Assembly (NCBI GenBank): GCA_023150555.1
Contig: JAKLKQ010000033.1
Location: 5,088 to 69,087, forward strand
Source: Planctomycetota bacterium
GTDB lineage: Bacteria; Planctomycetota; SZUA-567; H5-PLA8
DNA: 64,000 nt
Direction of reading: 5' to 3'
In this document: one piece after another, positions 286 through 64,000 of the stretch
Numbering within the stretch: the first letter of the stretch is position 1
Layout of the letters: each line of letters opens with the position of its first letter
Made by a program: the position numbers and the translations under genes
The notes under the pieces: model-generated
The model's input: only the letters and a program-made list of their open reading frames with translations
The model's database searches: none
What the model was told of the DNA's origin: nothing

Positions 286-2888
286 TCAAGGCCTTCCGCG
301 CCCGCGTCCTCCACTACTACGTCGCCCGCGAGTACCTGAAGAATCTCGCGCTGGCGCTGGTGGCAGTGACGATCGTCTGGACGGCCTTCCTGCTGATCCT
401 GAAGGCTACGGAGGTCGAGGACTTCGGCATCTCGGTCGGCGACCTGATCCTGCTGACGCCGTTCATGATGCCGTGGGTGATGACCGGCGCCTTCCCGCTC
501 GCGTGCATGATGGCGGCGATCACGGTCTTCGGGCGCATGGCCAGCGACAACGAGATCCAGGCGGCGCACGCCGGCGGCGCCTCGGTGGGGCTGCTGGCGA
601 TGCCGGTGCTGTTCCTGGCCTTCGTCATCTCCAGCGTCTCGCTGTGGTGCAGCGACCAGGGCATGGACTGGGGCTTCTCGAAGATCCGCAATCACTTCCT
701 GACGCTTGAGAACGAAGACCTGCTCGAGAAACTCGAGAAGCCCGGCTCCACCTTTCCGCTGCAGATGGACGGCGGCCGCGTCGCGGTGATCAGCATGCTG
801 CCGCGCATGCCCGAGCGCGAAGGCAGCCAGCGCATCCTGCGTCCGATCCACATCGCCTTCTTCGACGGCGTGCAGCTGGTCGACAGCCTCTACGCGCGCG
901 AGCACGAGTATTCCGCACCGTCGGCGGACGAAAGCGGCAGCCTGAGCATGGGCATCACGCTTCAGGGCGCGCAGACGCTGAGCGAGAACCCGATGTTCTT
1001 CGAGCAGCTGGAGCTGACCCTGCCGCTGCCGAAGCTCGAAGAGCAGATCACCCTCTTCTCGGGCTCGGGCAGCGAGCCGCTGCTGATCAACTGGCGCGAG
1101 GCGCGCGAGTTGCGCGCCAGCATCCCGGTGCGCCAGGACTTCATCCTCGACCGCGCCGCCGAACTGGTCGCGCAGGCCGCGGCCGGCTCGCCCGCCGACC
1201 CGTCCATGCCGCTCTTGGCGGGCAAGCAGTGGATGGAAGTCCGCACGGCAGCCGCGCAGGTGGACGGCGCGCGGAACAAGGCACAGAAGAAGCTGGCGGA
1301 GTTCCACCGCAAGCTGGCACTGGCGTTCCTGCCGCTGAGCCTGGTGGTCCTGGGCATCGGGCTGGGACTGCTGGTGCGCAAGGGCAACCGCGCGGTCGGT
1401 TTCGTGCTGGGCCTGCTGGCCTACCTGCTGACGTTCTATCCCCCAATGGTGATCTCGAAGGAGTTCGCCAACGCCGGGGCCGCGCCGCCGTGGGTGCTGT
1501 GGGCCCCGAACCTTCTGATCCTGGTGCTGGGCATCGCGCTGTGGTGGTCGCACAACCGCGGCTACTTGGACGCGTCGCTGCCGCAGTGGATGCGCCTGGG
1601 CTGGCTGGTGCCGTCGCGCAAGGTGCTGTACGGCGCGTTCTACAACGCGATCTGGCAGCGGCTCACGCGGCTGGAATGGTGGCGCGCGCTGCCGTTCCGG
1701 CGCAAGGCCGAACGCCACGTGGCGGCGTCGTTCCTCGCGCCGCTGCTGCTGATCGCGCTGGCGGTGGCGCTGCTGTTCGTGCTGCTGGACTTGGTCGAGC
1801 ACGGCGGCGAGGTGATCAAGGGCGTCCAACTGCACCTGGAACCGCTGGGCAACATGGAACCGCGCAGCCTGCCGCGCGCGCTGACCGATGTCGGCGTCTA
1901 CTACGCCATCCGCGGCCTCTCCATGCTCTTCGACCTGATGCCGGTGGTGATCCTGATCGCCGGCGTGCTGGCCGTCACCATCATGGTGCGTAACAACGAG
2001 CACCTGATCTTCAAGTCGGTGGGCACTCCGCTGCAGCGCGTCTTCCGCCCCATCCTGCTGACGTCGGCGCTGCTGGCGCTGGGCATCACGCTGGTGCGCG
2101 AGACCGTCCTGCCATCGCTGATCATGGAGCGCGACCGCCTCAAGCCTCTCGTCTACCACCGCACGCCCAAGTCCAAGTCCATGGCCGGGCAGAGCGAGGA
2201 CGCGCAGGGCCGCCCGATCATCTACGAGATCGAGCGCTTCTCGCGAAACCTGCACCGCTGCGAAGGCCTGCGCATCTACATGCCGCAGGAGGCCGTCGAC
2301 GGGCGCATCCCGCGGCTGGTCGCCGACCGCGCCGACTGGGACCACGAGTACCAGTGCTGGAACCTGAAATCCCGCAAGCCGCACGTGCCGGCCAACAGCG
2401 AAGACGACGAGCATTTCACCGCCGGCGGACGCCTCGTCAAGCCCATCCCCACGCCGCCGGAGCAGCGCAGCCAGCGCGGGGCGTTCTTCATGCATGCCGA
2501 GGATAAGCGCACCTTCGACGGCGTGCTCTCGCCGGCCTTCCTCGAAAGCGAGAAGCTGGGCACCAAGGTCATGCGCCTGGGCGAACTGTGGACCCTGCGC
2601 AGCCGCCCGGCCTTCGGCGCCGAACTGTGGCGCCGGGCCTGCGAGTGGCTCACCGGACTGCTGCTCCTGATGGTCTGCATCCCGCTGCTGGTGCGCAACG
2701 AGATCCGCAACCCGCTGATCGGCATTGCCGTCTGCATGGGCTACGGCGCCGTCTACCTGGGCCTGACGCTGGGCGTGACCGAGGCGGCCAGCCGCGCGAT
2801 GCTGGGCAGCACCGCGTTCGTCGCGCTGCCGCACCTGCTCTTCCTCGCGATGGCGATGGTGAGTTACCGGTACAAGATGGAGACGTGA
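282..2888 (+). CDS. LPS export permease, fused LptF-LptG (two YjgP/YjgQ permease domains in one 868-aa polypeptide)
   Basis: The N-terminus VIKAFRARVLHYYVAREYL resembles the LptF/LptG start. There are two blocks of multiple TM helices, each followed by a periplasmic region. GTG 282 overlaps the upstream stop (GTGA). The first in-frame ATG (78) would overlap the upstream gene by 200 bp, so it is rejected. Confidence 0.7.
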   Translation: MIKAFRARVLHYYVAREYLKNLALALVAVTIVWTAFLLILKATEVEDFGISVGDLILLTPFMMPWVMTGAFPLACMMAAITVFGRMASDNEIQAAHAGGASVGLLAMPVLFLAFVISSVSLWCSDQGMDWGFSKIRNHFLTLENEDLLEKLEKPGSTFPLQMDGGRVAVISMLPRMPEREGSQRILRPIHIAFFDGVQLVDSLYAREHEYSAPSADESGSLSMGITLQGAQTLSENPMFFEQLELTLPLPKLEEQITLFSGSGSEPLLINWREARELRASIPVRQDFILDRAAELVAQAAAGSPADPSMPLLAGKQWMEVRTAAAQVDGARNKAQKKLAEFHRKLALAFLPLSLVVLGIGLGLLVRKGNRAVGFVLGLLAYLLTFYPPMVISKEFANAGAAPPWVLWAPNLLILVLGIALWWSHNRGYLDASLPQWMRLGWLVPSRKVLYGAFYNAIWQRLTRLEWWRALPFRRKAERHVAASFLAPLLLIALAVALLFVLLDLVEHGGEVIKGVQLHLEPLGNMEPRSLPRALTDVGVYYAIRGLSMLFDLMPVVILIAGVLAVTIMVRNNEHLIFKSVGTPLQRVFRPILLTSALLALGITLVRETVLPSLIMERDRLKPLVYHRTPKSKSMAGQSEDAQGRPIIYEIERFSRNLHRCEGLRIYMPQEAVDGRIPRLVADRADWDHEYQCWNLKSRKPHVPANSEDDEHFTAGGRLVKPIPTPPEQRSQRGAFFMHAEDKRTFDGVLSPAFLESEKLGTKVMRLGELWTLRSRPAFGAELWRRACEWLTGLLLLMVCIPLLVRNEIRNPLIGIAVCMGYGAVYLGLTLGVTEAASRAMLGSTAFVALPHLLFLAMAMVSYRYKMET

Positions 2889-2921
2889 GCGTCTCCCGGA
2901 ACTGAAGAGAACCGATCGACC

Positions 2922-4610
2922 ATGCCCCTGCTGGACGCCTACACCGTCGCCGACCTGCTCGACGAGATCGGCGCGCGCCTGGAACTCAGCGGCGAGTCGC
3001 CGTTCAAGGTCCGCGCGTACCAGAACGGCGCGGAAGTCCTGCGCGCGCTCAAGCTCCCGCTGGCGGGCCTGGTCGAGGACCGCAAGCTCAAGGCGCTGCC
3101 CGGCATCGGCGAGGCCCTGGCCGAGAAGATCAGCAAACTCCACCGCACCGGCTCTCACCCGCTGCTGGAACGCCTGCGCGAGGAAGTGCCCGACGGCCTC
3201 CTGCGCCTGGTCGCGCTGCCCGGCCTGGGCCCCAAGAAGGCCCTGCGCCTCCGCGAAGACCTGGGCATCGACGACCTCGACGCGCTCGAGCGCGCCATCG
3301 ACGACGGGTCGCTCGCGAAGGCCAAGGGTTTCTCTGCCAAGGCCGCCGAGAAACTCAAGCACGCCCTCGGCTTCGTGCGCGCCTCGGCCGGGCGCCTGCG
3401 CCTGAACGACGCCGACGCGCTGCTGTCCGTCGCCGCCGCGGAACTCCGCGCGCAGCCCGGCGTGACGCAGGTCTGGCCCGCCGGCGAGGCCCGGCGCCGC
3501 TGCGAGACCGTCGGAGAACTGTGCGTCGTCGCCGCCGCGGATAGACCAGAGCGGCTGCCCGCGAAGGCCGGCCCCGGCGAACGCGTGCGCGTGCTGGCCG
3601 TGAAGCCCGGCTGCTTCGGCGCCGCGTTGCTGTGCGCGACGGGGTCCGAGAAGCACGTCGCGGAACTGAACGCCCGCGCGAAGAAGGAGGGCCTGGCGCT
3701 CTCGGAGGACGGCCTCACTCGCAAGGGCAAGGCCGTCGCCGCGCCGGCCGAGGCCGACATCTACGAGAGCCTCGGCTTGCCGTACATCGAACCCGAACTG
3801 CGCGAAGGCCGCGGAGAACTCGACGCAAAGGACCAGAAGGCGCGCGGGAAACTCGTCGCCGACGCTGACCTGAAGGGCATCGTGCACTGCCACAGCACCT
3901 ACAGCGACGGCGCGAACACGCTGGAGCAGATGGCCGAGGCCGTGCGCGCCATGGGCCTGCAGTACTTCGGCATCGCCGACCACAGCAAGAGTGCCGGGTA
4001 CGCCGGCGGCCTGAAGGAAGACCGCGTCAAGCGCCAGCGCGAGGAAGTCGACGCGCTCAACGAGCGCTACGCGAAGGAGAAGGCGCCCTTTCGCGTCTTC
4101 CACGGCATCGAGAGCGACATCCGGGAGGACGGCAGCCTCGACTACGACGACGAGGTGCTCGCCAACTTCGATTACGTCGTCGCCAGCGTGCACAGCCGCT
4201 TCGACCTCGACGAGGCCGCGCAGACCGCGCGCATCGTGAAGGCCATCTCCCACCCGGCCACCACAATCCTGGGCCACGCCACCGGCCGCCTGCTGCTGCG
4301 GCGCGAAGGCTACAAGGTGGATCTGGAGCAGGTGCTGGCCGCCTGCGCGAAGCACGGCGTGGCGGTGGAGGTCAACGCGCATCCCGTGCGCCTGGATCTC
4401 GACTGGCGCTGGCACGCGCGCGCCCTGGAACTGGGCGCGTGGCTCTCGATCAACCCCGACGCGCACAACACCGAGGAGCTGAAACTGGTGGCCTACGGCG
4501 TCGCCGTCGCGCGCAAGGGCGGCGTGCCCCCGGACAAGGTGCTGAACGCGCTCGACGCGAAGGCCTTCGAGAAGCACCTCCTGGCCCGCAGGAAGCGCTG
4601 GAAAAAGTAG
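2922..4610 (+). CDS. polX: Family X DNA polymerase PolX with C-terminal PHP phosphoesterase domain
   Basis: N-terminal Pol-beta-like HhH region (LPGIGEALAEKI, LPGLGPKKALRL). C-terminal PHP motif HCHSTYSDGANTLEQMAEA...GIADHS. Length 562 aa. Confidence 0.85.
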   Translation: MPLLDAYTVADLLDEIGARLELSGESPFKVRAYQNGAEVLRALKLPLAGLVEDRKLKALPGIGEALAEKISKLHRTGSHPLLERLREEVPDGLLRLVALPGLGPKKALRLREDLGIDDLDALERAIDDGSLAKAKGFSAKAAEKLKHALGFVRASAGRLRLNDADALLSVAAAELRAQPGVTQVWPAGEARRRCETVGELCVVAAADRPERLPAKAGPGERVRVLAVKPGCFGAALLCATGSEKHVAELNARAKKEGLALSEDGLTRKGKAVAAPAEADIYESLGLPYIEPELREGRGELDAKDQKARGKLVADADLKGIVHCHSTYSDGANTLEQMAEAVRAMGLQYFGIADHSKSAGYAGGLKEDRVKRQREEVDALNERYAKEKAPFRVFHGIESDIREDGSLDYDDEVLANFDYVVASVHSRFDLDEAAQTARIVKAISHPATTILGHATGRLLLRREGYKVDLEQVLAACAKHGVAVEVNAHPVRLDLDWRWHARALELGAWLSINPDAHNTEELKLVAYGVAVARKGGVPPDKVLNALDAKAFEKHLLARRKRWKK

Positions 4611-13707: not shown

Positions 13708-14117
13708 TGTCCGGCCTCGACGGGTTCCCCCTCGCCCATCTCGCGATCGCGGTCGAATCGCTGAAGGCCGCGGCGCCCACCTACGTGGCGCTGGGCTTCA
13801 ACGTCGGAGAGCCGGAGGAACTGGCACGCGAAAAGATCCGCGCGCGCATCGCCGAGAAGGACGGCTTCCGCATCGAGTTGCTGGAACCGCTTGCGCCCGG
13901 CGAAGGCCCGATCGGAAAGTTCATCGCCAAGCGTGGGCCGGGCCTGCACCACGTCGCGCTGCGCACCACGGACCTCGACGGGGACTTGCAGCGCCTCGCC
14001 GCGACGGGCGTCGTGCCGTTGAAAGGCTATCCCGCCTCTGGGCTTCACGGTACCCGCGTGGCGTTCCTCGATCCCAAGACCACCTGCGGCGTCCTGTACG
14101 AGTTAGTGCAAGGGTGA
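13704..14117 (+). CDS. Methylmalonyl-CoA epimerase (VOC/glyoxalase fold)
   Basis: LAHLAIAVESLKAA...FRIELLEPLAPGEGPIGKFIAKRGPGLHHVALRTTDLD is the typical MCE pattern. It follows the mutase gene directly (ATGA overlap). Confidence 0.8.
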   Translation: MMSGLDGFPLAHLAIAVESLKAAAPTYVALGFNVGEPEELAREKIRARIAEKDGFRIELLEPLAPGEGPIGKFIAKRGPGLHHVALRTTDLDGDLQRLAATGVVPLKGYPASGLHGTRVAFLDPKTTCGVLYELVQG

Positions 14118-14169
14118 GACCTATTTGAACCACCAAGACACGAAGGCACCGAGAAATTCATGAAGCAAC

Positions 14170-14829
14170 TTACGGCCGCAGCGAAGGTTTATCAATGGTG
14201 AGCGCTATATCGATGCGCGCCTTGCCAAAATCAAACAAGCAGGAAACAACCCAGTCGCCCCAAAACAGAAGAAGGCAAGATTCTGGCTTCAATTCTTTCG
14301 AAAAGGACGAGGCATACTGCCTGAGCGCTAATTCAAATTTGTCGAACTTGAGGCTTTCGCCGTCGGCCCGAACCCAAACGAGCTCTTCTTTTGAACCCTC
14401 TTGGTATTTGCCGTACCACATCCCAGAAGGACGCTCCACCCGAATAAACTGCATGCGGGACCGCAAAACATCCATAACCACTACATTCAACACGGTAATC
14501 CAGGGGCGAGCTTCCTCTGGCATGGCCAGCAGAGCACGTTCGATATCCAGTATCATCTGCGTGGGAAACTTCGGTGCAGGGTGGTACTTCTTCAATGCCC
14601 AATCAAGCGACTCTTCCGTTACTAAAATGGGCTCTATCTGCGTCCCTAATAGGAACTCGATGTCAATGCCTACCACAAGCCACGCGTCCCCTTCTTCTCG
14701 GTCGGTAGCAAACTGAACTTTGCTTTCGGTCCTACGGACGACAGGTGCGCGCAGGGTGTGAGATTGCGCTGCGGTCAATACCTGCGTTGCGCCTGTGTCG
14801 ATTGGTAGATTTCTGAGGTTTTCGCGCAT
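14170..14829 (-). CDS. Hypothetical protein (219 aa) encoded in a low-GC islet
   Basis: Long ORF in a segment that is clearly AT-richer than its flanks (about 14118-14910). No recognisable family motif. Confidence 0.5.
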   Translation of the reverse strand: MRENLRNLPIDTGATQVLTAAQSHTLRAPVVRRTESKVQFATDREEGDAWLVVGIDIEFLLGTQIEPILVTEESLDWALKKYHPAPKFPTQMILDIERALLAMPEEARPWITVLNVVVMDVLRSRMQFIRVERPSGMWYGKYQEGSKEELVWVRADGESLKFDKFELALRQYASSFSKELKPESCLLLFWGDWVVSCLFDFGKARIDIALTIDKPSLRP

Positions 14830-14910
14830 GTAGCTGTAGCCCGTAACACGAGCCCTTCGCCCATAGGATCTGAACCCGTTTCGTTCGAGCGAGTCACATA
14901 GCAGTATGGG

Positions 14911-15522
14911 CTACCGTTTCAGCGTATTGAGCGCCCGGTAGGCCGCGTTGCGCACAGCGATGTGCTTGTCGCGCGTGAGCCGATTCAACGCGGCGCGCGC
15001 CTTGACGGCCTTGCGCGCGCCCAGGGCGTCGGCGGCTTGCTGCCGCACGTACCACTTTTCGTCGCGCGTGGCCTTGATCAGGGCGGCTTCGGACTTCGGC
15101 ACCTTAAAGCGCGCCAGCGCCTGCACCGTTCGCGCCCGCACGCCGCCGGATTCGTCCTTCACCAGGGGGAGGAGGTACTTCGCCATCGATTCGTCGCCCA
15201 GGCGCACAATGCCGTCGACCGCGTGCAGGCGCACGGACATGTGCGAGTCCTTCAACGCTTTGCGTATGGCGGTGCGGGACTCGGCGCCGCCGATATGCCC
15301 CAGCGTTTCGGCCGCCCAGCGCCGGATGCGCGCATTGCGGTTCTTGGCACAGGCGTGCACGAGATCCGGAACGGCGCGCTCGCCCAGCGCGGCGAGCTGC
15401 TTCACCACCTTGCGGACCTCGACCTCGCCTTCCTGGTTGAGCTCCAGGATCAGGCGCTCGGTCCGACTCGGAGGACGCGGAGCCGACTTCTTGACGGCTC
15501 GTGCGGACTTGGCGGTCGGCAT
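14911..15522 (-). CDS. HEAT-repeat (PBS-lyase-like) protein
   Basis: Repeated units of the form ...VRRWAAETLGHIGGAESRTAIRKALKD, SVRLHAVDGIVRLGDES and GGVRARTVQALARF are characteristic of HEAT_2/PBS lyase repeats. Confidence 0.65.
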   Translation of the reverse strand: MPTAKSARAVKKSAPRPPSRTERLILELNQEGEVEVRKVVKQLAALGERAVPDLVHACAKNRNARIRRWAAETLGHIGGAESRTAIRKALKDSHMSVRLHAVDGIVRLGDESMAKYLLPLVKDESGGVRARTVQALARFKVPKSEAALIKATRDEKWYVRQQAADALGARKAVKARAALNRLTRDKHIAVRNAAYRALNTLKR

Positions 15523-58687: not shown

Positions 58688-60313
58688 ATGCCGCGAGTGA
58701 CCATCGACGGCCGTAGCGTTGACGTCGAACCCGGCACAACCATTCTTGATGCCGCGCGGAAACTCGGCATCGAGATCCCCACGCTCTGCCACCTCGCCGA
58801 TCACGACCCCGAGACCAGCTGCATGGCCTGCGTTGTGCGCGTCAACGGCAGCGCGAGCCTGACGCCGTCCTGCGCGCGCATAGCGGAAGAAGGCATGGCC
58901 GTCGAGAGCGAGGTCGAGGATATCCGCGCGATCCGCCGCATGGCGTTCGAACTCTTGCTCAGCGACCACATCGGCGACTGCATCGCGCCGTGCCACCACA
59001 CCTGCCCCGCGCACATGGAGATCCCGCTGATGCTGCGGCAGGTCAGCGAGGGCCAGATGCGCGAAGCCCTGCGCACGATCAAGAAGGACATCGCGCTGCC
59101 CGCCGTGCTCGGACGCGTCTGTCCGGAGGTCTGCGAACGCACCTGCCGCCGCACGTTCTACGACCACCCGGCTTCGATCTGCATGGTCAAGCGCATCGTG
59201 GCCGACGAAGACTTCGCCAGCGGCGATCCCTACGTGCCCGAGCGCGCGCCCGCCAGCGGCAAGCGCGTCGCCGTCGTGGGAAGCGGACCAGCGGGCCTCG
59301 CCGCCGCCTATTACCTCGCGCAGGATGGCCACGAGGTCGTCATCTACGATGCGAGAGACGAACCCGGCGGCGCGCTGCGTTACAATGTTCCGGAGGAGAA
59401 GCTGCCACGCGGCGTCCTGAACGCGGAAATCGGGATCATCCGCCGCCTGGGCGTGACGTTCCGGATGAACACGAGGCTGGGCAGCGACCTGACCTTGGCG
59501 GATCTGCGCGGCGATTTCGACGCCGTCTTTCTCGGCACCGGCGAACTGGAACCCGGCAAGGCGTACGAGTTGGGCTTGCACGCGCCCGGTACCCGGCTTC
59601 CGGCGAACCTCTCCACGCTCGAGACCGCCGCGCCCGGCGTCTTCGCGGGCGGCGACCTCGTGCGTCGGCGCAGGCTGGCGGTACGGTCCATTGCCGACGG
59701 AAAAATCGCTGCGCATGGCATTTCGCGGTACCTGCGCGGATTGAAACCCGAAGGCGAATCGCACGGCTGCGCCTCGCGCATGGGCCAAGTGGACCGCGAG
59801 ACCATCGATCTGCTGATGACTGGCAAGGTGAGCTCCGAGGACCGCCACGTGCCCCAGACCGGGCCATCCGAAGGCTTCACGCCGACGGAAGCACGGGTCG
59901 AGTCCATGCGCTGCCTGCATTGCGACTGCCGTGCGAAAGACAACTGCGGCCTGCGGGACTTTTCCGAATCCTACGAGGCCGCCCAAGGCCGCTTCAAAGG
60001 CAGCCGCCGCGTGCTGGTGCCGCTCCAGGAAGGCAGCCGGCTGATCTTCGAACCGGGCAAGTGCATCGCCTGCGGGCTGTGCGTGCAGATCACATGCAAG
60101 GGCGGCGAGCCCCTGGGCCTCACGTTTATCGGGCGCGGCTTCGACATGCGCATCGGCGTGCCGTTCGACCGGCCGATTGCGGATGGCCTAACCGTCACTG
60201 CCGACGCCTGCGTGAACGCGTGCCCTACCGGCGCGATCGCCTTCGCCGATTCCGAATTGCTCCGGCAGCCCTGGGAACCGCGCGTGGCCGTGGAGGACCG
60301 CGTCCATGACTGA
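58688..60313 (+). CDS. NuoG-N-like [2Fe-2S] ferredoxin domain fused to GltD/NfnB-like NAD(P)H-FAD oxidoreductase, plus C-terminal ferredoxin (StnC-like)
   Basis: MPRVTIDGRSVDVEPGTTILDAARKLGIEIPTLCH...SCMACVV is 2Fe-2S. The GltD-like motifs are CPAHMEIPLMLRQVSEGQ..AL, CPEVCERTC, GKRVAVVGSGPAGLAAAYYLAQDGHEVVIYD and GGDLV. C-terminal CIACGLCVQ. SD AAGGTGAGGTGA lies upstream. Confidence 0.85.
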   Translation: MPRVTIDGRSVDVEPGTTILDAARKLGIEIPTLCHLADHDPETSCMACVVRVNGSASLTPSCARIAEEGMAVESEVEDIRAIRRMAFELLLSDHIGDCIAPCHHTCPAHMEIPLMLRQVSEGQMREALRTIKKDIALPAVLGRVCPEVCERTCRRTFYDHPASICMVKRIVADEDFASGDPYVPERAPASGKRVAVVGSGPAGLAAAYYLAQDGHEVVIYDARDEPGGALRYNVPEEKLPRGVLNAEIGIIRRLGVTFRMNTRLGSDLTLADLRGDFDAVFLGTGELEPGKAYELGLHAPGTRLPANLSTLETAAPGVFAGGDLVRRRRLAVRSIADGKIAAHGISRYLRGLKPEGESHGCASRMGQVDRETIDLLMTGKVSSEDRHVPQTGPSEGFTPTEARVESMRCLHCDCRAKDNCGLRDFSESYEAAQGRFKGSRRVLVPLQEGSRLIFEPGKCIACGLCVQITCKGGEPLGLTFIGRGFDMRIGVPFDRPIADGLTVTADACVNACPTGAIAFADSELLRQPWEPRVAVEDRVHD

Positions 60314-61442
60314 ACGTCATCGTCACTACTTCGACTACGCAGCCTCCTGCCCGCCGTGGAAGGAGGCCCTCGATGCCGCCGACCGCTGCGCGCTGGAATT
60401 CCCGGGCAATCCGTCCGCGCAGCACGAAGCAGGACGGTGCGCGCAGGAAACGTGGGAGACCCTGGCGCAGCGATTCACGGCGCTCTGCAAATTCACAAAC
60501 GGGCGATTGGTAGCCTGCTCCGGCGGCACCGAGGCGAACAACCTGGCGATTCGCGGCGTCATGAACCGGTATCCGGCCGGGCGCCTGCTGCTCGCCGCCG
60601 ACGCCCATCCCTCCGCATGGTTCGCGACCAAAGAGTACGCAAAGCGCGTAGACATTCTGCCGCTCGAGAAAAACGGAGAGATCTCACCGCTGAAACTATC
60701 CAAGATGATCCGGAAAGACACGCTGCTCGTCAGCTGCATGCACGCGTCAAACGAGACCGGATTCGTACAAAACATCGCCGTGCTGGGCGCCGCATGCGCG
60801 GAGCGGAAGGTCCTCTTTCACGTCGATGGCGTACAGGCCGTCGGACACCTTCCGCTGGACCTGAAAATCGTTCCTGTCAATTTGTATGCCTTTTCGGTGC
60901 ACAAATTCGGTGGCCCGCGCGGCTTCGGGGGCCTGTTCGTTCGGTTCCCGGACCTTTCGCCGCAGATCCTTGGCGGCGACCAGCAGGACGGCCTGCGCGC
61001 CGGCACCGAGAACCTTCCCGGACTCGCGGGGTCCGTAGCGGCCCTGGAACAGTGTCTGGCGCGGATTGAGACGGAAATCCCGCGCCAGCGCGAGTTGGCG
61101 GCCGAACTGGTCGCCTCGGTTCAAGCATCTTTCCCATCGGTCCTCGTGAACTCGGACTCGGCGCACGGCCTGCCGGGCCTAGTGAGCCTCTCCTTTCCCG
61201 GCATCGACGCGCAGGTCTTGATCGCGGATCTGGATCTGCAGGGTTTCGCCGTCGCTGCGGGCGGCGCCTGCCATGCGCACCGCCGCGAACCGTCGCGCGC
61301 GATCCTGGCCCTGGGCCGCAGCAAGCGGGAGGCACAAGGCACGATCCGCATCAGCATGGGGCACGCCACGCGTCGGGACGAGGTCCTCGCGCTCGCCGAG
61401 GTGCTGGTCCAGGCGGCGGCACGCCAGGCGGCCTTGGCATGA
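60306..61442 (+). CDS. Cysteine desulfurase-like class V aminotransferase (NifS/IscS family)
   Basis: SGGTEANNLAIRG, the PLP-Lys motif SVHKFGGPRGFGGLFV, and AAGGACHA. ATG overlaps the upstream stop. Confidence 0.8.
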   Translation: MTERHRHYFDYAASCPPWKEALDAADRCALEFPGNPSAQHEAGRCAQETWETLAQRFTALCKFTNGRLVACSGGTEANNLAIRGVMNRYPAGRLLLAADAHPSAWFATKEYAKRVDILPLEKNGEISPLKLSKMIRKDTLLVSCMHASNETGFVQNIAVLGAACAERKVLFHVDGVQAVGHLPLDLKIVPVNLYAFSVHKFGGPRGFGGLFVRFPDLSPQILGGDQQDGLRAGTENLPGLAGSVAALEQCLARIETEIPRQRELAAELVASVQASFPSVLVNSDSAHGLPGLVSLSFPGIDAQVLIADLDLQGFAVAAGGACHAHRREPSRAILALGRSKREAQGTIRISMGHATRRDEVLALAEVLVQAAARQAALA

Positions 61443-62326
61443 AGCCCGCGTTCTCGATCCAACCTCCTGCGGTCGCCGCCCTTCCGGCGCCCGCGGCCGT
61501 GGCCACGGCGAAGACCGATGCTGCCCTGCTCGCACAGGCCCCGCCGGCCTTGAAGGAATGCCTGCTGCGCATGATCGAGACCGGCGCGCCGCACCTGATT
61601 CTCTCCGGCAGCGACCCGATTGATCCGCACGGCTGCTGCCCCGAAAGCCTGGTCGGCGCGGCAAACCGCCTGGTCGAGGCCGGCGTCCTCGGCCGGTGGC
61701 GAAGGCCCGGGCCCATCGGCGCCTGCCCCGTCACCGTCTACGCCTTTCGCGGCGAGATCTCGATAGTGGACCGGCAGTCGGTGTTTACCGTGGACGTGAC
61801 CTTGCGGCGTTCCCTCCTGCCGGCATTGAAGGGCGAACGCCGCCGAGCGAGGGTCCTCATCGCCCTGCGCGCCGGGTTACTCGCCTTCGTTATCGCCACG
61901 CTGGTGGTGATCGCCTTCGGCGCCAGCGTCCAATCGACGGGCGGCAACGGCGCCGCGGCCCTGACCGCCGGACTCCCCCGCGAGAACATGACGGTCCTGG
62001 TGCTCTTCCGTACATCGGCTCGCTGCCGATTCTGCGAGCACATGGACGTCTTCGCGCGTGAAGGTCTGTCCGCTCAATTCAATGACAACCTGCGCGACGG
62101 ACGCATCGCCTACCGCGAGATCGATTTCGACCGCACGGAATACCGCGACTTGCGCGGCGCCTTCGGGCTCGCGTCCACGACGCTGGCGCTCTTCGAGATT
62201 CGCGGCGGCCAGGCGGTGCGCTGGAAGGTCCTGGAGGAGGCCTGGCAACTGACGGAGGACCGCGAGGCGTTTCTCGAGATGACCGCGCGCGAAGTCGCGG
62301 CCTTTAGGGAGGCGCCCCATGAATGA
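61439..62326 (+). CDS. Membrane-anchored thioredoxin-like protein with CxxC (CRFC) motif
   Basis: Central TM helix (VLIALRAGLLAFVIATLVVIAFGA). C-terminal VLVLFRTSARCRFCEHMD...YREIDFD is a thioredoxin-fold pattern. ATG overlaps the upstream stop. Confidence 0.45.
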   Translation: MKPAFSIQPPAVAALPAPAAVATAKTDAALLAQAPPALKECLLRMIETGAPHLILSGSDPIDPHGCCPESLVGAANRLVEAGVLGRWRRPGPIGACPVTVYAFRGEISIVDRQSVFTVDVTLRRSLLPALKGERRRARVLIALRAGLLAFVIATLVVIAFGASVQSTGGNGAAALTAGLPRENMTVLVLFRTSARCRFCEHMDVFAREGLSAQFNDNLRDGRIAYREIDFDRTEYRDLRGAFGLASTTLALFEIRGGQAVRWKVLEEAWQLTEDREAFLEMTAREVAAFREAPHE

Positions 62327-63008
62327 GGCGCTTGCACTATCGTTGAGCGCCGCCGGGCTGGGACTCCTGACCGCGGTACATCCCTGCCCCTTGGCAGGAC
62401 ACCTCGGCGCGCTCGCCGCTCTGAGCGGCTGGTCGGGGTGCCCGAGGCGCGTCTGGTTCGCAGGCCTGGCGCTCGCAGCGGGATTCGCCGTAGCGTACGC
62501 TGCGCTGGGCATCCTGCTGAGTTGGGGGCTCGCCTCGGCGCCCTACACGTCCGAAGTTCTGCGATCGTACCTAACCCGCCTGCTGGGCCCGTTCCTGGTG
62601 GTCGCGGGCATGCTGATGGCAGGATTGCTCGGCGGAAGCGGAGCACCAGCGCTGCGCGAGCGGGTATCGGCGTGGCTTGACCGGCGCGCATGGGGAAGTT
62701 GGATCGCCTTCCCCGCCGGCATGCTGCTCGCGCTGAGTTTCTGCCCTGCTTCCGCGGCGCTCTTCTTCGGCGTACTGCTGCCGCTGGCGCTGACAAAGCA
62801 GATGCCGGTTATCCTGCCGGTCGCTTACGGCGCGGGCGTGGCCTTGCCGCTGGCGGCCGTAGCATTCTTCGTCGCGTTCGGAACGCAGTGGCTAGGGCGG
62901 AAATCGGAACGCGAGGCGCGGACCCGAACGGTGCGCCTGGCGGCGGGCACCGTTTTGATCCTGGTGGGCATCGCCCACGCATTGCAGCATGTGTACGGCA
63001 TTCTCTAG
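62319..63008 (+). CDS. CcdA/DsbD-family transmembrane thiol-disulfide electron transporter (DsbD_2)
   Basis: A polytopic protein with two membrane-embedded Cys in helix-start positions (VHPCPLAG and LSFCPASAALFFG), the DsbD/CcdA hallmark. Confidence 0.6.
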   Translation: MNEALALSLSAAGLGLLTAVHPCPLAGHLGALAALSGWSGCPRRVWFAGLALAAGFAVAYAALGILLSWGLASAPYTSEVLRSYLTRLLGPFLVVAGMLMAGLLGGSGAPALRERVSAWLDRRAWGSWIAFPAGMLLALSFCPASAALFFGVLLPLALTKQMPVILPVAYGAGVALPLAAVAFFVAFGTQWLGRKSEREARTRTVRLAAGTVLILVGIAHALQHVYGIL

Positions 63009-63022
63009 CAACCTGCACCGGA

Positions 63023-63118
63023 TGGCGGGAGTGCATGGGAATCGAACCCACCCAACGCCCTTGCGGACGTCGCTACGGCTTTGAAGGCCGCGGCCGTCAC
63101 CAGACGACCTCCACTCCC
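63023..63118 (-). tRNA. selC: tRNA-Sec (selC), anticodon UCA, 96 nt
   Basis: The reverse complement reads GGGAGTGG A GGTCGTCTGGTGACGGCCGC GGCCTTCAAAGCC ... long variable arm ... GGGTTCGATTCCC ... GCACTCCC G CCA. The anticodon loop CUUCAAA matches E. coli selC. The D-arm TCGTCTGGTGA is nearly identical to E. coli selC. A long variable arm, an extended acceptor stem and a CCA end are all present. Confidence 0.8.
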
Positions 63119-63138
63119 AACCGTTGCAGCGTAAGGAC

Positions 63139-64000
63139 TTACGCGGTTTTCGCCCGCTGGCGCCCCTGGGGTTGAGGCTTTTTTTGAGGCTTTTCTGTCG
63201 CCAGTTTTCGCAGGTGGTTCCCCATCTTGCGGATCCCGGTGGTCGACTCGAGGGCGGACCAGTCGAGGTATTCGCGCTCGGCGATGGCGATCGAGTGCCG
63301 GTTCCGCTTGGCCTCTTGCTGGGGCAGCATGCCGGCGACGGCGTAGCACATCGTCGTGTGGTACTTGCGCAGGGCCTCGAGGTTGACGCGGGCCGGGAGC
63401 TCCGCCTTGGCGCGCAGCCTCCGGATCTCCCGGTAGGCCATGGACTCGGCCTTGGGCCAGAGAGGGTCGTCTTCCTTGCCGGGGTGATCAGCCAGCCAGG
63501 CGCGGAGTTCGGCGGCGGTCCAGGCGTCGAGGCGCACGGCGCCGCGCACGTTCTTCTCGATCGTCCAGACCTTGGGCTGCTGGCCGGCGAGCTCGAGATG
63601 GCGGCGGCAGACGCGGTTGATGGCGGCGACGGGGCGCAGGCCGGCGCCGGCGCAGAGCAGCACCAGGGGGTAGGCCAAGGTGCCGCGCGAGATCTGGATC
63701 AGGGCGCCGACCTCGGCGGCGGAGGCGGGGATGCTCTCGCCCTGGACCTCGCTGGGGAGTTCGAGTTTCTTTTTCGTCGCGGGGTTGGCTTCCCAATTCG
63801 TGAACGTCCGGCGCATGAGGCTTTCGAAGAAGCGGTGCACCGCGCGCTGGTGGTTGTGGATCGTGGTGGAACTGTACCCATTCCGGACAAGGGCGTCGAA
63901 ATAGTCCTGGCAGATCTTGCGGCAGCCGCGCAGGCCGAGGCGCGCCAGGTCCTGGTCGGGCTGGGCCTGGGCGAAATGGCCGAGAATCTGAAGGGCCGTG
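63139..64000 (-). CDS. Tyrosine recombinase / phage-type integrase, partial (5' end beyond the window)
   Basis: The frame runs to the window edge. The core-binding region is LGLRGCRKICQDYFDALVRNGYSSTTIHNHQRAVHRFFESL. The catalytic region has GAGLR (box I Arg), LRKYHTTMCYAV (box II HxxR-like) and C-terminal EREY. It is divergent from XerC/D. Confidence 0.55.
   Translation of the reverse strand, partial: TALQILGHFAQAQPDQDLARLGLRGCRKICQDYFDALVRNGYSSTTIHNHQRAVHRFFESLMRRTFTNWEANPATKKKLELPSEVQGESIPASAAEVGALIQISRGTLAYPLVLLCAGAGLRPVAAINRVCRRHLELAGQQPKVWTIEKNVRGAVRLDAWTAAELRAWLADHPGKEDDPLWPKAESMAYREIRRLRAKAELPARVNLEALRKYHTTMCYAVAGMLPQQEAKRNRHSIAIAEREYLDWSALESTTGIRKMGNHLRKLATEKPQKKPQPQGRQRAKTA

Follow-up and report, generated by a model that had tools for sequence, protein, structure and literature searches.

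Probable integration of a temperate-phage-like element through the 5′ half of a Planctomycete tRNA-Sec gene

Results

The tRNA-Sec gene and its neighbors

The window, which is the whole stretch of 64,000 nucleotides of Planctomycete DNA analyzed here, ends in an integrase gene (int) next to a selenocysteine (Sec) tRNA gene (tRNA-Sec, selC). We read this end with high confidence as the junction on the int side of an integrative element that resembles a temperate phage and was brought into the single tRNA-Sec gene by site-specific recombination. ARAGORN detects only one tRNA in the window, a tRNA-SeC with the anticodon tca (Table 1). The Rfam model of tRNA-Sec, RF01852, is matched over its full length of 1–91 at 63027..63118 with 74.8 bits (E=1.7e-13), the gathering score being 47 bits. 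The discriminator base and CCA are present in the DNA at 63023–63026. The two tools thus agree with the first-pass annotation, which had called a minus-strand tRNA-Sec with a UCA anticodon from the letters alone.

The host gene convergent with selC has its TAG stop codon at 63006–63008, and a 14-bp gap (63009–63022) separates it from the tRNA 3′ end. On the other side, the minus-strand int open reading frame (ORF) has its TAA stop codon at 63141–63139, 20 bp from the tRNA 5′ end, and runs uninterrupted for 286 codons to base 64000. The distances of 14 bp from the host operon to the tRNA and of 20 bp from the integrase-like gene to the tRNA 5′ end had been annotated with correct coordinates. 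The int gene is co-oriented with tRNA-Sec and lies upstream of it. Calling it divergent, as had been done, is right for its sequence and wrong for its orientation.

Table 1. Coordinates of the junction features in the window
Feature	Coordinates	Strand	Basis or remark
LysE/ArsG-like permease gene, last of the host operon, convergent with selC	62319..63008	+	host flank of the junction
Complete tRNA-Sec gene (selC), UCA anticodon, CCA encoded	63023..63118	-	ARAGORN, RF01852, attB/attP comparison
attP/attB 46-nt identity block, tRNA-Sec nt 1–46, starting at +1	63073..63118	-	one mismatch, nt 32
Deduced strand-exchange interval, tRNA nt 33–46 (anticodon loop nt 33–39 and 3′ stem strand)	63073..63086	-	marker base and block end
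Marker base, tRNA nt 32, closing pair of the anticodon stem	63087	-	C in window and attP; U at empty site and selD side
Element-derived 20-nt spacer GTCCTTACGCTGCAACGGTT, int stop to tRNA +1	63119..63138	-	replaces native selD–selC spacer CAGTACCGAATGCGTAGGAC
int gene, 3′ 862 nt including the stop codon; last 286 of 396 codons	63139..64000	-	PHROG, P0001 match, L023 int
Tandem direct repeat 2 × AAAAGCCTCAA inside the int 3′ coding region	63172..63194	-	putative arm-type (P-arm) Int-binding site

Four att forms of one element and its host

Contigs with the host side of the locus were found in Logan by exact-protein look-up of the neighboring host gene. Among them, L001–L003 and L007 match the host side of the window with 99.9–100% identity. 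L007 has the empty site, where selD, a 20-nt spacer, tRNA-Sec and the LysE-like gene follow one another. Its identity to the window is 99.9% as far as 63118, and from 63119, the base before tRNA +1, the two sequences are unrelated. Two contigs of a 94%-identical SelD (L012 and L013) have fur, selA and selD upstream. From these two gene orders, the native locus is selA–selD, 20 nt and selC.

Free attP forms are found as well. L011, a 5.7-kb contig encoding an Int homolog (P0002), has a gene for a cI-like repressor, which matches Phage_CI_repr and phrog_4, two divergent Cro-like helix-turn-helix (HTH) genes and int. Starting 20 nt past the int stop codon, it has tRNA-Sec nt 1–42, followed by unrelated DNA and further genes, with no complete tRNA. 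Querying with the 200-aa product of the gene just past this core gave L023 and L024.

L023 has an int of 396 aa, the 20-nt spacer, tRNA-Sec nt 1–46 and a 202-aa gene, again with no complete tRNA. It is 100% identical to the window from 64000 to 63073, over 928 nt, and diverges at 63072, so that tRNA nt 46 is the last shared base. L023 is attP of the same element as that in the window. L024 is the reciprocal junction of selD, tRNA nt 1–46 and phage DNA. From the selD end across the spacer to tRNA nt 46 its sequence is that of L007 (100% identity), and from the core onward into the 202-aa gene it shares 99.88% identity with L023.

In the tRNA orientation, attP reads TAA-GTCCTTACGCTGCAACGGTT on the left, a core of GGGAG...GCGG, C and CTTCAAAGCCGTAG, and TGCATGCGCG on the right. 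The attB reads TGA-CAGTACCGAATGCGTAGGAC on the left, a core of GGGAG...GCGG, T and CTTCAAAGCCGTAG, and CGACGTCCGC on the right. The window junction joins the attP left, the C allele and the attB right, and the L024 junction joins the attB left, the T allele and the attP right. With the covariance model, attP and the far junction yield no scoring tRNA, and the recombinant gene scores 74.8 versus 72.8 bits for the native gene of L007.

Thus, the integrated-element junction proposed at selC in the first-pass annotation has its empty site, free attP and reciprocal junction all in public assemblies, and the atypical placement of int on the 5′ side of the tRNA is real according to L007, L023 and L024. 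The att repeat was misplaced in that proposal, which put it in the selC 3′ segment. The duplicated part is the 5′ 46 nt of selC, and a search for a 3′ repeat would fail. Exact patterns of the tRNA 5′ half have no match in the viral, GTDB-genome and JGI-metagenome collections.

Two simpler accounts of the locus were rejected. One is that the phage encodes a complete tRNA-Sec, but attP holds only nt 1–42 or 1–46. The other is a mere gene-order difference between strains, and the reciprocal junction is present.

Crossover site and recombinant gene

The sole mismatch in the 46-nt block marks the origin of each flank. The nt-32 base is C in the window, L011 and L023, and U in L001–L003, L005–L008 and L024–L026, and the allele segregates with its flank in each of the 13 contigs spanning the position. 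The recombinant tRNA-Sec takes nt 1–32 or more from the element and nt 47–96 from the host. Because the marker segregates and the block ends at nt 46, strand exchange is placed within nt 33–46, which are identical in both parents. As to the exact cuts within this interval, we infer that the strands would most likely be exchanged across the anticodon loop, whose 7 nt lie between the two strands of the dyad-symmetric stem.

Identity of the integrase

The window ORF matches the PHROG family phrog_1 ‘integrase’ with E=3.5e-12, and P0002 matches it with E=1.3e-21. The profile search against integrase families thus bears out the first call of an integrase. Distant members of the int family have PF00589 matches on record in precomputed annotation. 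A PDB sequence search with a two-sequence profile finds no recombinase.

The int family is rare. A search of 5.8 billion proteins returns only two, P0001 and P0002. P0001, an NCBI hypothetical protein from a 70,926-bp contig of a Planctomycetes metagenome-assembled genome (MAG), is 100% identical to the window ORF over 286 residues. P0002 is 76% identical over the partial ORF of the window and 81% identical to the full-length Int of the window element. An exhaustive hidden Markov model search finds 118 cluster representatives of the family among 1.84 billion, and a family scan of the GTDB genomes finds no relative.

The full-length Int is encoded in L023 by a 396-aa ORF (353–1543) with 100% DNA identity to the window int, and P0001 is its exact suffix. 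NCBI annotated P0001 as 329 aa from an internal GTG, and the 67 extra residues of L023 are the predicted arm-binding domain. The short NCBI start is probably a start-site error, and it is conceivable that the MAG copy has an N-terminal defect.

The catalytic residues are largely canonical. All 61 aligned members have R232, R321, Y354 and an N-P motif, and conservation reaches at least 90% at K259 and at G344, the Gly of the GH motif. The window Int has H345, and the first His of HxxR is replaced (E/Q-A-L-R; EALR), so that 5 of 6 catalytic positions are canonical.

An AlphaFold2 model of P0002 from 61 aligned homologs has a predicted local distance difference test score (pLDDT) of 90.7, versus 35 in an initial run with a two-sequence alignment, and includes a predicted N-terminal β-sheet domain. 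Its top Foldseek match in the PDB is the full-length lambda Int (1z1b_A, E=1.2e-9), over 352 columns with the N-terminal domain included. Further matches are XerA, Tn1549 Int, XerH, Cre and IntI, all of them, lambda Int included, at a probability of 1.00. The Xer models of NCBIfam score far below their cut-offs on Int, with 28 bits for XerA (NF040815, cut-off 220) and 12 bits for XerD (TIGR02225, cut-off 330). The window ORF product is a very divergent tyrosine integrase, most likely of the lambda type, and no Xer enzyme.

Putative arm sites and the int–attP module

The tandem repeat inside the int 3′ coding region (Table 1) has a counterpart in attP, where a second tandem pair lies across the core about 220 bp away. 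The L011 copies at 4212–4243 and 4430–4461 flank the core likewise. Analogous paired tandem repeats flank the core in L021, found by repeat search, and in L019, L031 and L032, found by inspection. These pairs and the predicted N-terminal domain together suggest arm-type sites of a heterobivalent Int.

The int DNAs of the window and L011 are 62–90% identical in 60-nt segments for the greater part of the gene, and they are 97–100% identical over the last ~240 nt through tRNA nt 42. As identity rises to this level there, the int–attP end is a conserved module. The C-terminal tails of the family integrases (window 63142–63200; P0058–P0070) have short repeated peptides such as KPQKKPQP, PEQNPEQN and PHKKPRKRK, among others. 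This repetition comes from the location of the putative arm sites, the tandem DNA repeats, within the coding sequence, which couples the tail of the protein to the att arm.

A short motif, GTCCTTAC, comes directly or shortly after the int stop codon (TAA/TGA) and begins the 20-nt spacer. It is at 63131–63138 on the minus strand of the window, at 4275–4282 of L011, at ~11081–11088 of L019 and at ~3626–3633 of L032, and is common to ~30%-identical family members targeting Sec, Ser and Arg tRNAs. It is part of a short palindrome in the window and L019. Possible roles for the motif are a core site, a site for an accessory protein and a signal for RNA processing.

Related integrase loci

A co-oriented tRNA 5′ part comes shortly after the int stop codon in 6 of the 10 related loci with readable downstream DNA. 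The Sec 5′ part is in the locus L011/L023, the attP forms. A Ser(UGA) 5′ part is in L019, an IMG/VR viral contig with Erf-type and exonuclease genes, where the truncated tRNA model match is 20.5 bits. Arg(CCU) 5′ parts are in L022, with a truncated match of 16 bits, and in L032, a JGI metagenome contig. L031, an IMG/VR viral contig, has an Arg(CCG) 5′ part, and L029 has a Cys(GCA) 5′ part, the contig stopping inside the tRNA.

The other four loci differ from these. L028, a JGI contig with P0062, has the classical layout, namely a Ser(CGA) 3′ part from the anticodon stem to CCA, antiparallel at 4144–4260. No recognizable tRNA part follows int in L018, L021 and L027. Hence, with six of ten loci mirrored and L028 classical, the mirrored polarity is recurrent, not universal, in the family. 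In L022, a second integrase gene of 443 aa (2312–3643, PF00589) lies divergently beside the family member P0063.

Discussion

The integration mechanism

The proposed integration has a simple course. The element attP, directly downstream of int, would carry the 5′ half of tRNA-Sec through the anticodon loop, nt 1–46. A lambda-type, putatively heterobivalent integrase, with arm-binding, core-binding and catalytic domains, would exchange strands within nt 33–46. The element would land upstream of the tRNA because it carries the 5′ half instead of the usual 3′ half. The regenerated selC would then sit 20 nt behind int, and the displaced native 5′ fragment would be left after selD, at the opposite end of the element.

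Several observations weigh against integration of a phage-like element as read here. The element takes up only the final 862 nt of the window, where the size, completeness and phage nature of this copy are not visible. No excisionase is identified, and no structural phage genes are seen in the close relatives, of which L011 is 5.7 kb long. Pfam gives the window ORF a sub-threshold match to Phage_int_SAM_1 (SAM-like) only, and PF00589 is not detected. The int-side junction with the C allele is continuous only in the window MAG contig, and the Logan contigs branch there. A scan upstream of the tRNA for a sigma-70-like promoter consensus, run along with a terminator scan, finds none.

What kind of element it is

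The putative phage nature is based on the lysogeny module of L011 and on the relatives in viral contigs. The junction could be real and the element something else, i.e. an integrative plasmid, an integrative and conjugative or mobilizable element, a satellite or, here, a decayed remnant, which we consider unlikely yet worth keeping in mind. L011, L023 and L024 have no capsid, terminase or tail genes, and the homologs of the 202-aa protein gave only a weak endolysin neighbor, beside a 48%-identical one in L030. The L011 repressor gene and the divergent Cro-like HTH genes beside int speak against a non-phage element, and so do distant family members on IMG/VR viral contigs, one of them with Erf-type and exonuclease-type recombination genes. 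As to a remnant, the internal GTG start of the window Int at NCBI, leaving 329 aa, would fit an N-terminal defect, but the attP form is 100% identical to the window copy, which argues for recent mobility.

A false join is a different concern. In an assembly chimera, the attP of a free phage would be wrongly joined to the host attB through the shared tRNA segment, and the 46 nt shared by the two are where metagenome assemblies break or branch. The C-allele junction seen only in the window would fit such a join. However, the join would need a switch within the 14 exactly shared nt (33–46), too short for usual assembly k-mers, and the reciprocal product, the U32 allele with phage DNA, was assembled in L024, L025 and L026 from three runs. 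Moreover, L004 and L010 stop immediately short of the marker base, which is the expected outcome with both alleles next to the host flank in those samples. We therefore give the chimera very little credence.

Several Logan contigs, assembled with k=31, have ends at +94, at +78 and at tRNA nt 29 on the selD side, which are the expected branch points of an att mixture. Coming from the host side, some contigs break off after 30 nt of the shared block and others a single base ahead of the marker. The ends at +44 and +109 are unaccounted for by the mixture.

The weakest alternative, also raised in the first-pass annotation, is a stand-alone or domesticated Xer-like recombinase merely beside selC with no mobile element; it draws on the weak similarity to archaeal XerA and Phage_int_SAM_1 and on XerA and XerH among the structural matches, but is next to untenable with the Xer models far below their cut-offs, the same gene in the attP form next to phage-type cI/cro-like regulators, identical host strains that have selD in place of int, and the full-length lambda Int with its arm-binding domain as the top structural match.

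Transcription of tRNA-Sec in the lysogen

Integration of the phage-like element would change what transcribes the tRNA gene. At the empty site, tRNA-Sec would be the tail of the selA–selD transcript. In the lysogen, tRNA-Sec would be transcribed from an element promoter, because all the DNA upstream of selC is element DNA. By this logic, read-through of the cI-like/int operon probably drives the lysogen tRNA-Sec.

At the far junction, L024 has selD, the displaced tRNA fragment and the element genes of 202 and 78 aa on one strand (1–1205). The host selA–selD transcription could read into these element genes.

The empty-site selD (1022–2075 of L007, minus strand) has an in-frame TGA at 2033–2035, with Sec at the active site in SCAG-U-AAKIP, and gene callers shorten it to 325 aa. 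Since selD encodes Sec at its active-site position, SelD itself needs tRNA-Sec.

Comparison with known systems

Integration into a tRNA 5′ half is already known as a kind, because reviews and the Islander filter cover it. The configuration filter of Islander retains candidates with an upstream 5′ fragment. According to the review PMC8371274, bacterial recombinant tRNA genes keep their own promoter with very few exceptions, and archaeal pTN3-like integrases use the tRNA 5′ half, the recombinant tRNA being expressed from the integrase promoter, which is ‘seldomly encountered in bacteria’. PMC6563490 cites Zhao & Williams 2002 (J Bacteriol 184:859) for a bacterial reversed target orientation, along with several archaeal cases. 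The present case is a well-documented instance of this rare known kind.

The closest layout is that of the pTN3-like elements (TKV4/pTN3) of Thermococcales. As described in PMC8371274 and compared by layout alone, both have attB in the tRNA 5′ half and an uninterrupted tRNA restored downstream of int, whereas those are archaeal and ours is bacterial with a tRNA-Sec target and a lambda-like Int with putative arm sites. The element of Zhao & Williams 2002, compared by its citation in PMC6563490 alone, is alike in the reversed target orientation. Beyond what that citation gives, the present case has all four att forms and several related integrases of the same polarity.

The anticodon-loop class (Williams 2002), to the extent summarized in PMC8371274, shares a tyrosine integrase, a crossover at or next to the 7-nt loop and a symmetric stem. 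In both, as that summary has it, the block runs from the crossover to one tRNA end, and integration restores an intact gene while moving a fragment to the far end. Unlike in the class so summarized, the block here runs to the 5′ end (nt 1–46), the element lies upstream and the upstream control region of the tRNA is replaced.

Lambda Int (1z1b, 1z1g, 5j0n) is the best structural match over ~350 columns. The present Int has the catalytic R-K-R-H-Y residues, and repeats lie on both sides of the core, as arm sites would. Unlike lambda Int, the identity being 13–16%, the first His of HxxR is not conserved, one putative arm set lies inside int and the target is a tRNA gene.

The enterobacterial selC elements LEE, SHI-2 and phage phiR73 are at the selC 3′ end and have P4-type integrases. 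Unlike them, the present element takes the 5′ half with a very rare integrase family, called unrelated to theirs. Pseudomonas Pf phages that use tRNA-Sec (PMC7549136) have the same target gene.

Significance

New here are a bacterial case from a Planctomycete, documented in all four att forms at tRNA-Sec, and an int family undetected here by Pfam and repeatedly of mirrored polarity. Public assemblies contain attB, attP and the two junctions with about 100% identity, and the marker base brackets the crossover. Bacterial tRNA integrators nearly all restore the 3′ end, leaving the host promoter in charge, and reviews call use of the 5′ half very rare among bacteria. The target here is the single tRNA-Sec gene detected in the window, in a poorly studied phylum.

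The family could be used to study the polarity determinants and the prophage takeover of transcription of an essential decoding component. The classical member L028 and the mirrored members would be a natural system for what sets integration polarity. Prophage or island finders that use only 3′ tRNA fragments or PF00589 would miss such elements.

A broader proposal is tentative, and we hold it to be possible though rather doubtful. It is that the clade is repeatedly mirrored, replacing the upstream control and the promoter-proximal half of its target tRNA genes, and that via selC it makes selenoprotein synthesis dependent on prophage lysogeny transcription. If true, the element separates the only detected tRNA-Sec gene from selA–selD and places it behind the cI-like/int operon. 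All selenoprotein synthesis, that of the Sec-containing SelD included, would then be tied to the lysogeny transcription as a built-in dependence or regulatory coupling, which would be non-neutral.

Other features of the window

The tail of the host operon (58688–63008) encodes a GltD-like flavoprotein similar to NCBIfam ‘diclust_near_Sec’ and to YgfK, a putative selenate reductase subunit, and a NifS/IscS-like cysteine desulfurase. It also encodes an ArsF-like protein at 55 bits (cut-off 60) and the ArsG-like permease at 159.6 bits (cut-off 200). Upstream of this tail are genes for a NuoE/F-fusion, a ferredoxin and pyrroloquinoline quinone (PQQ)-propeller proteins. The operon tail may be a redox system linked to metalloid or selenium. 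Elsewhere, at 14001–15000, the GC fraction is 0.55 versus about 0.66 for the window.

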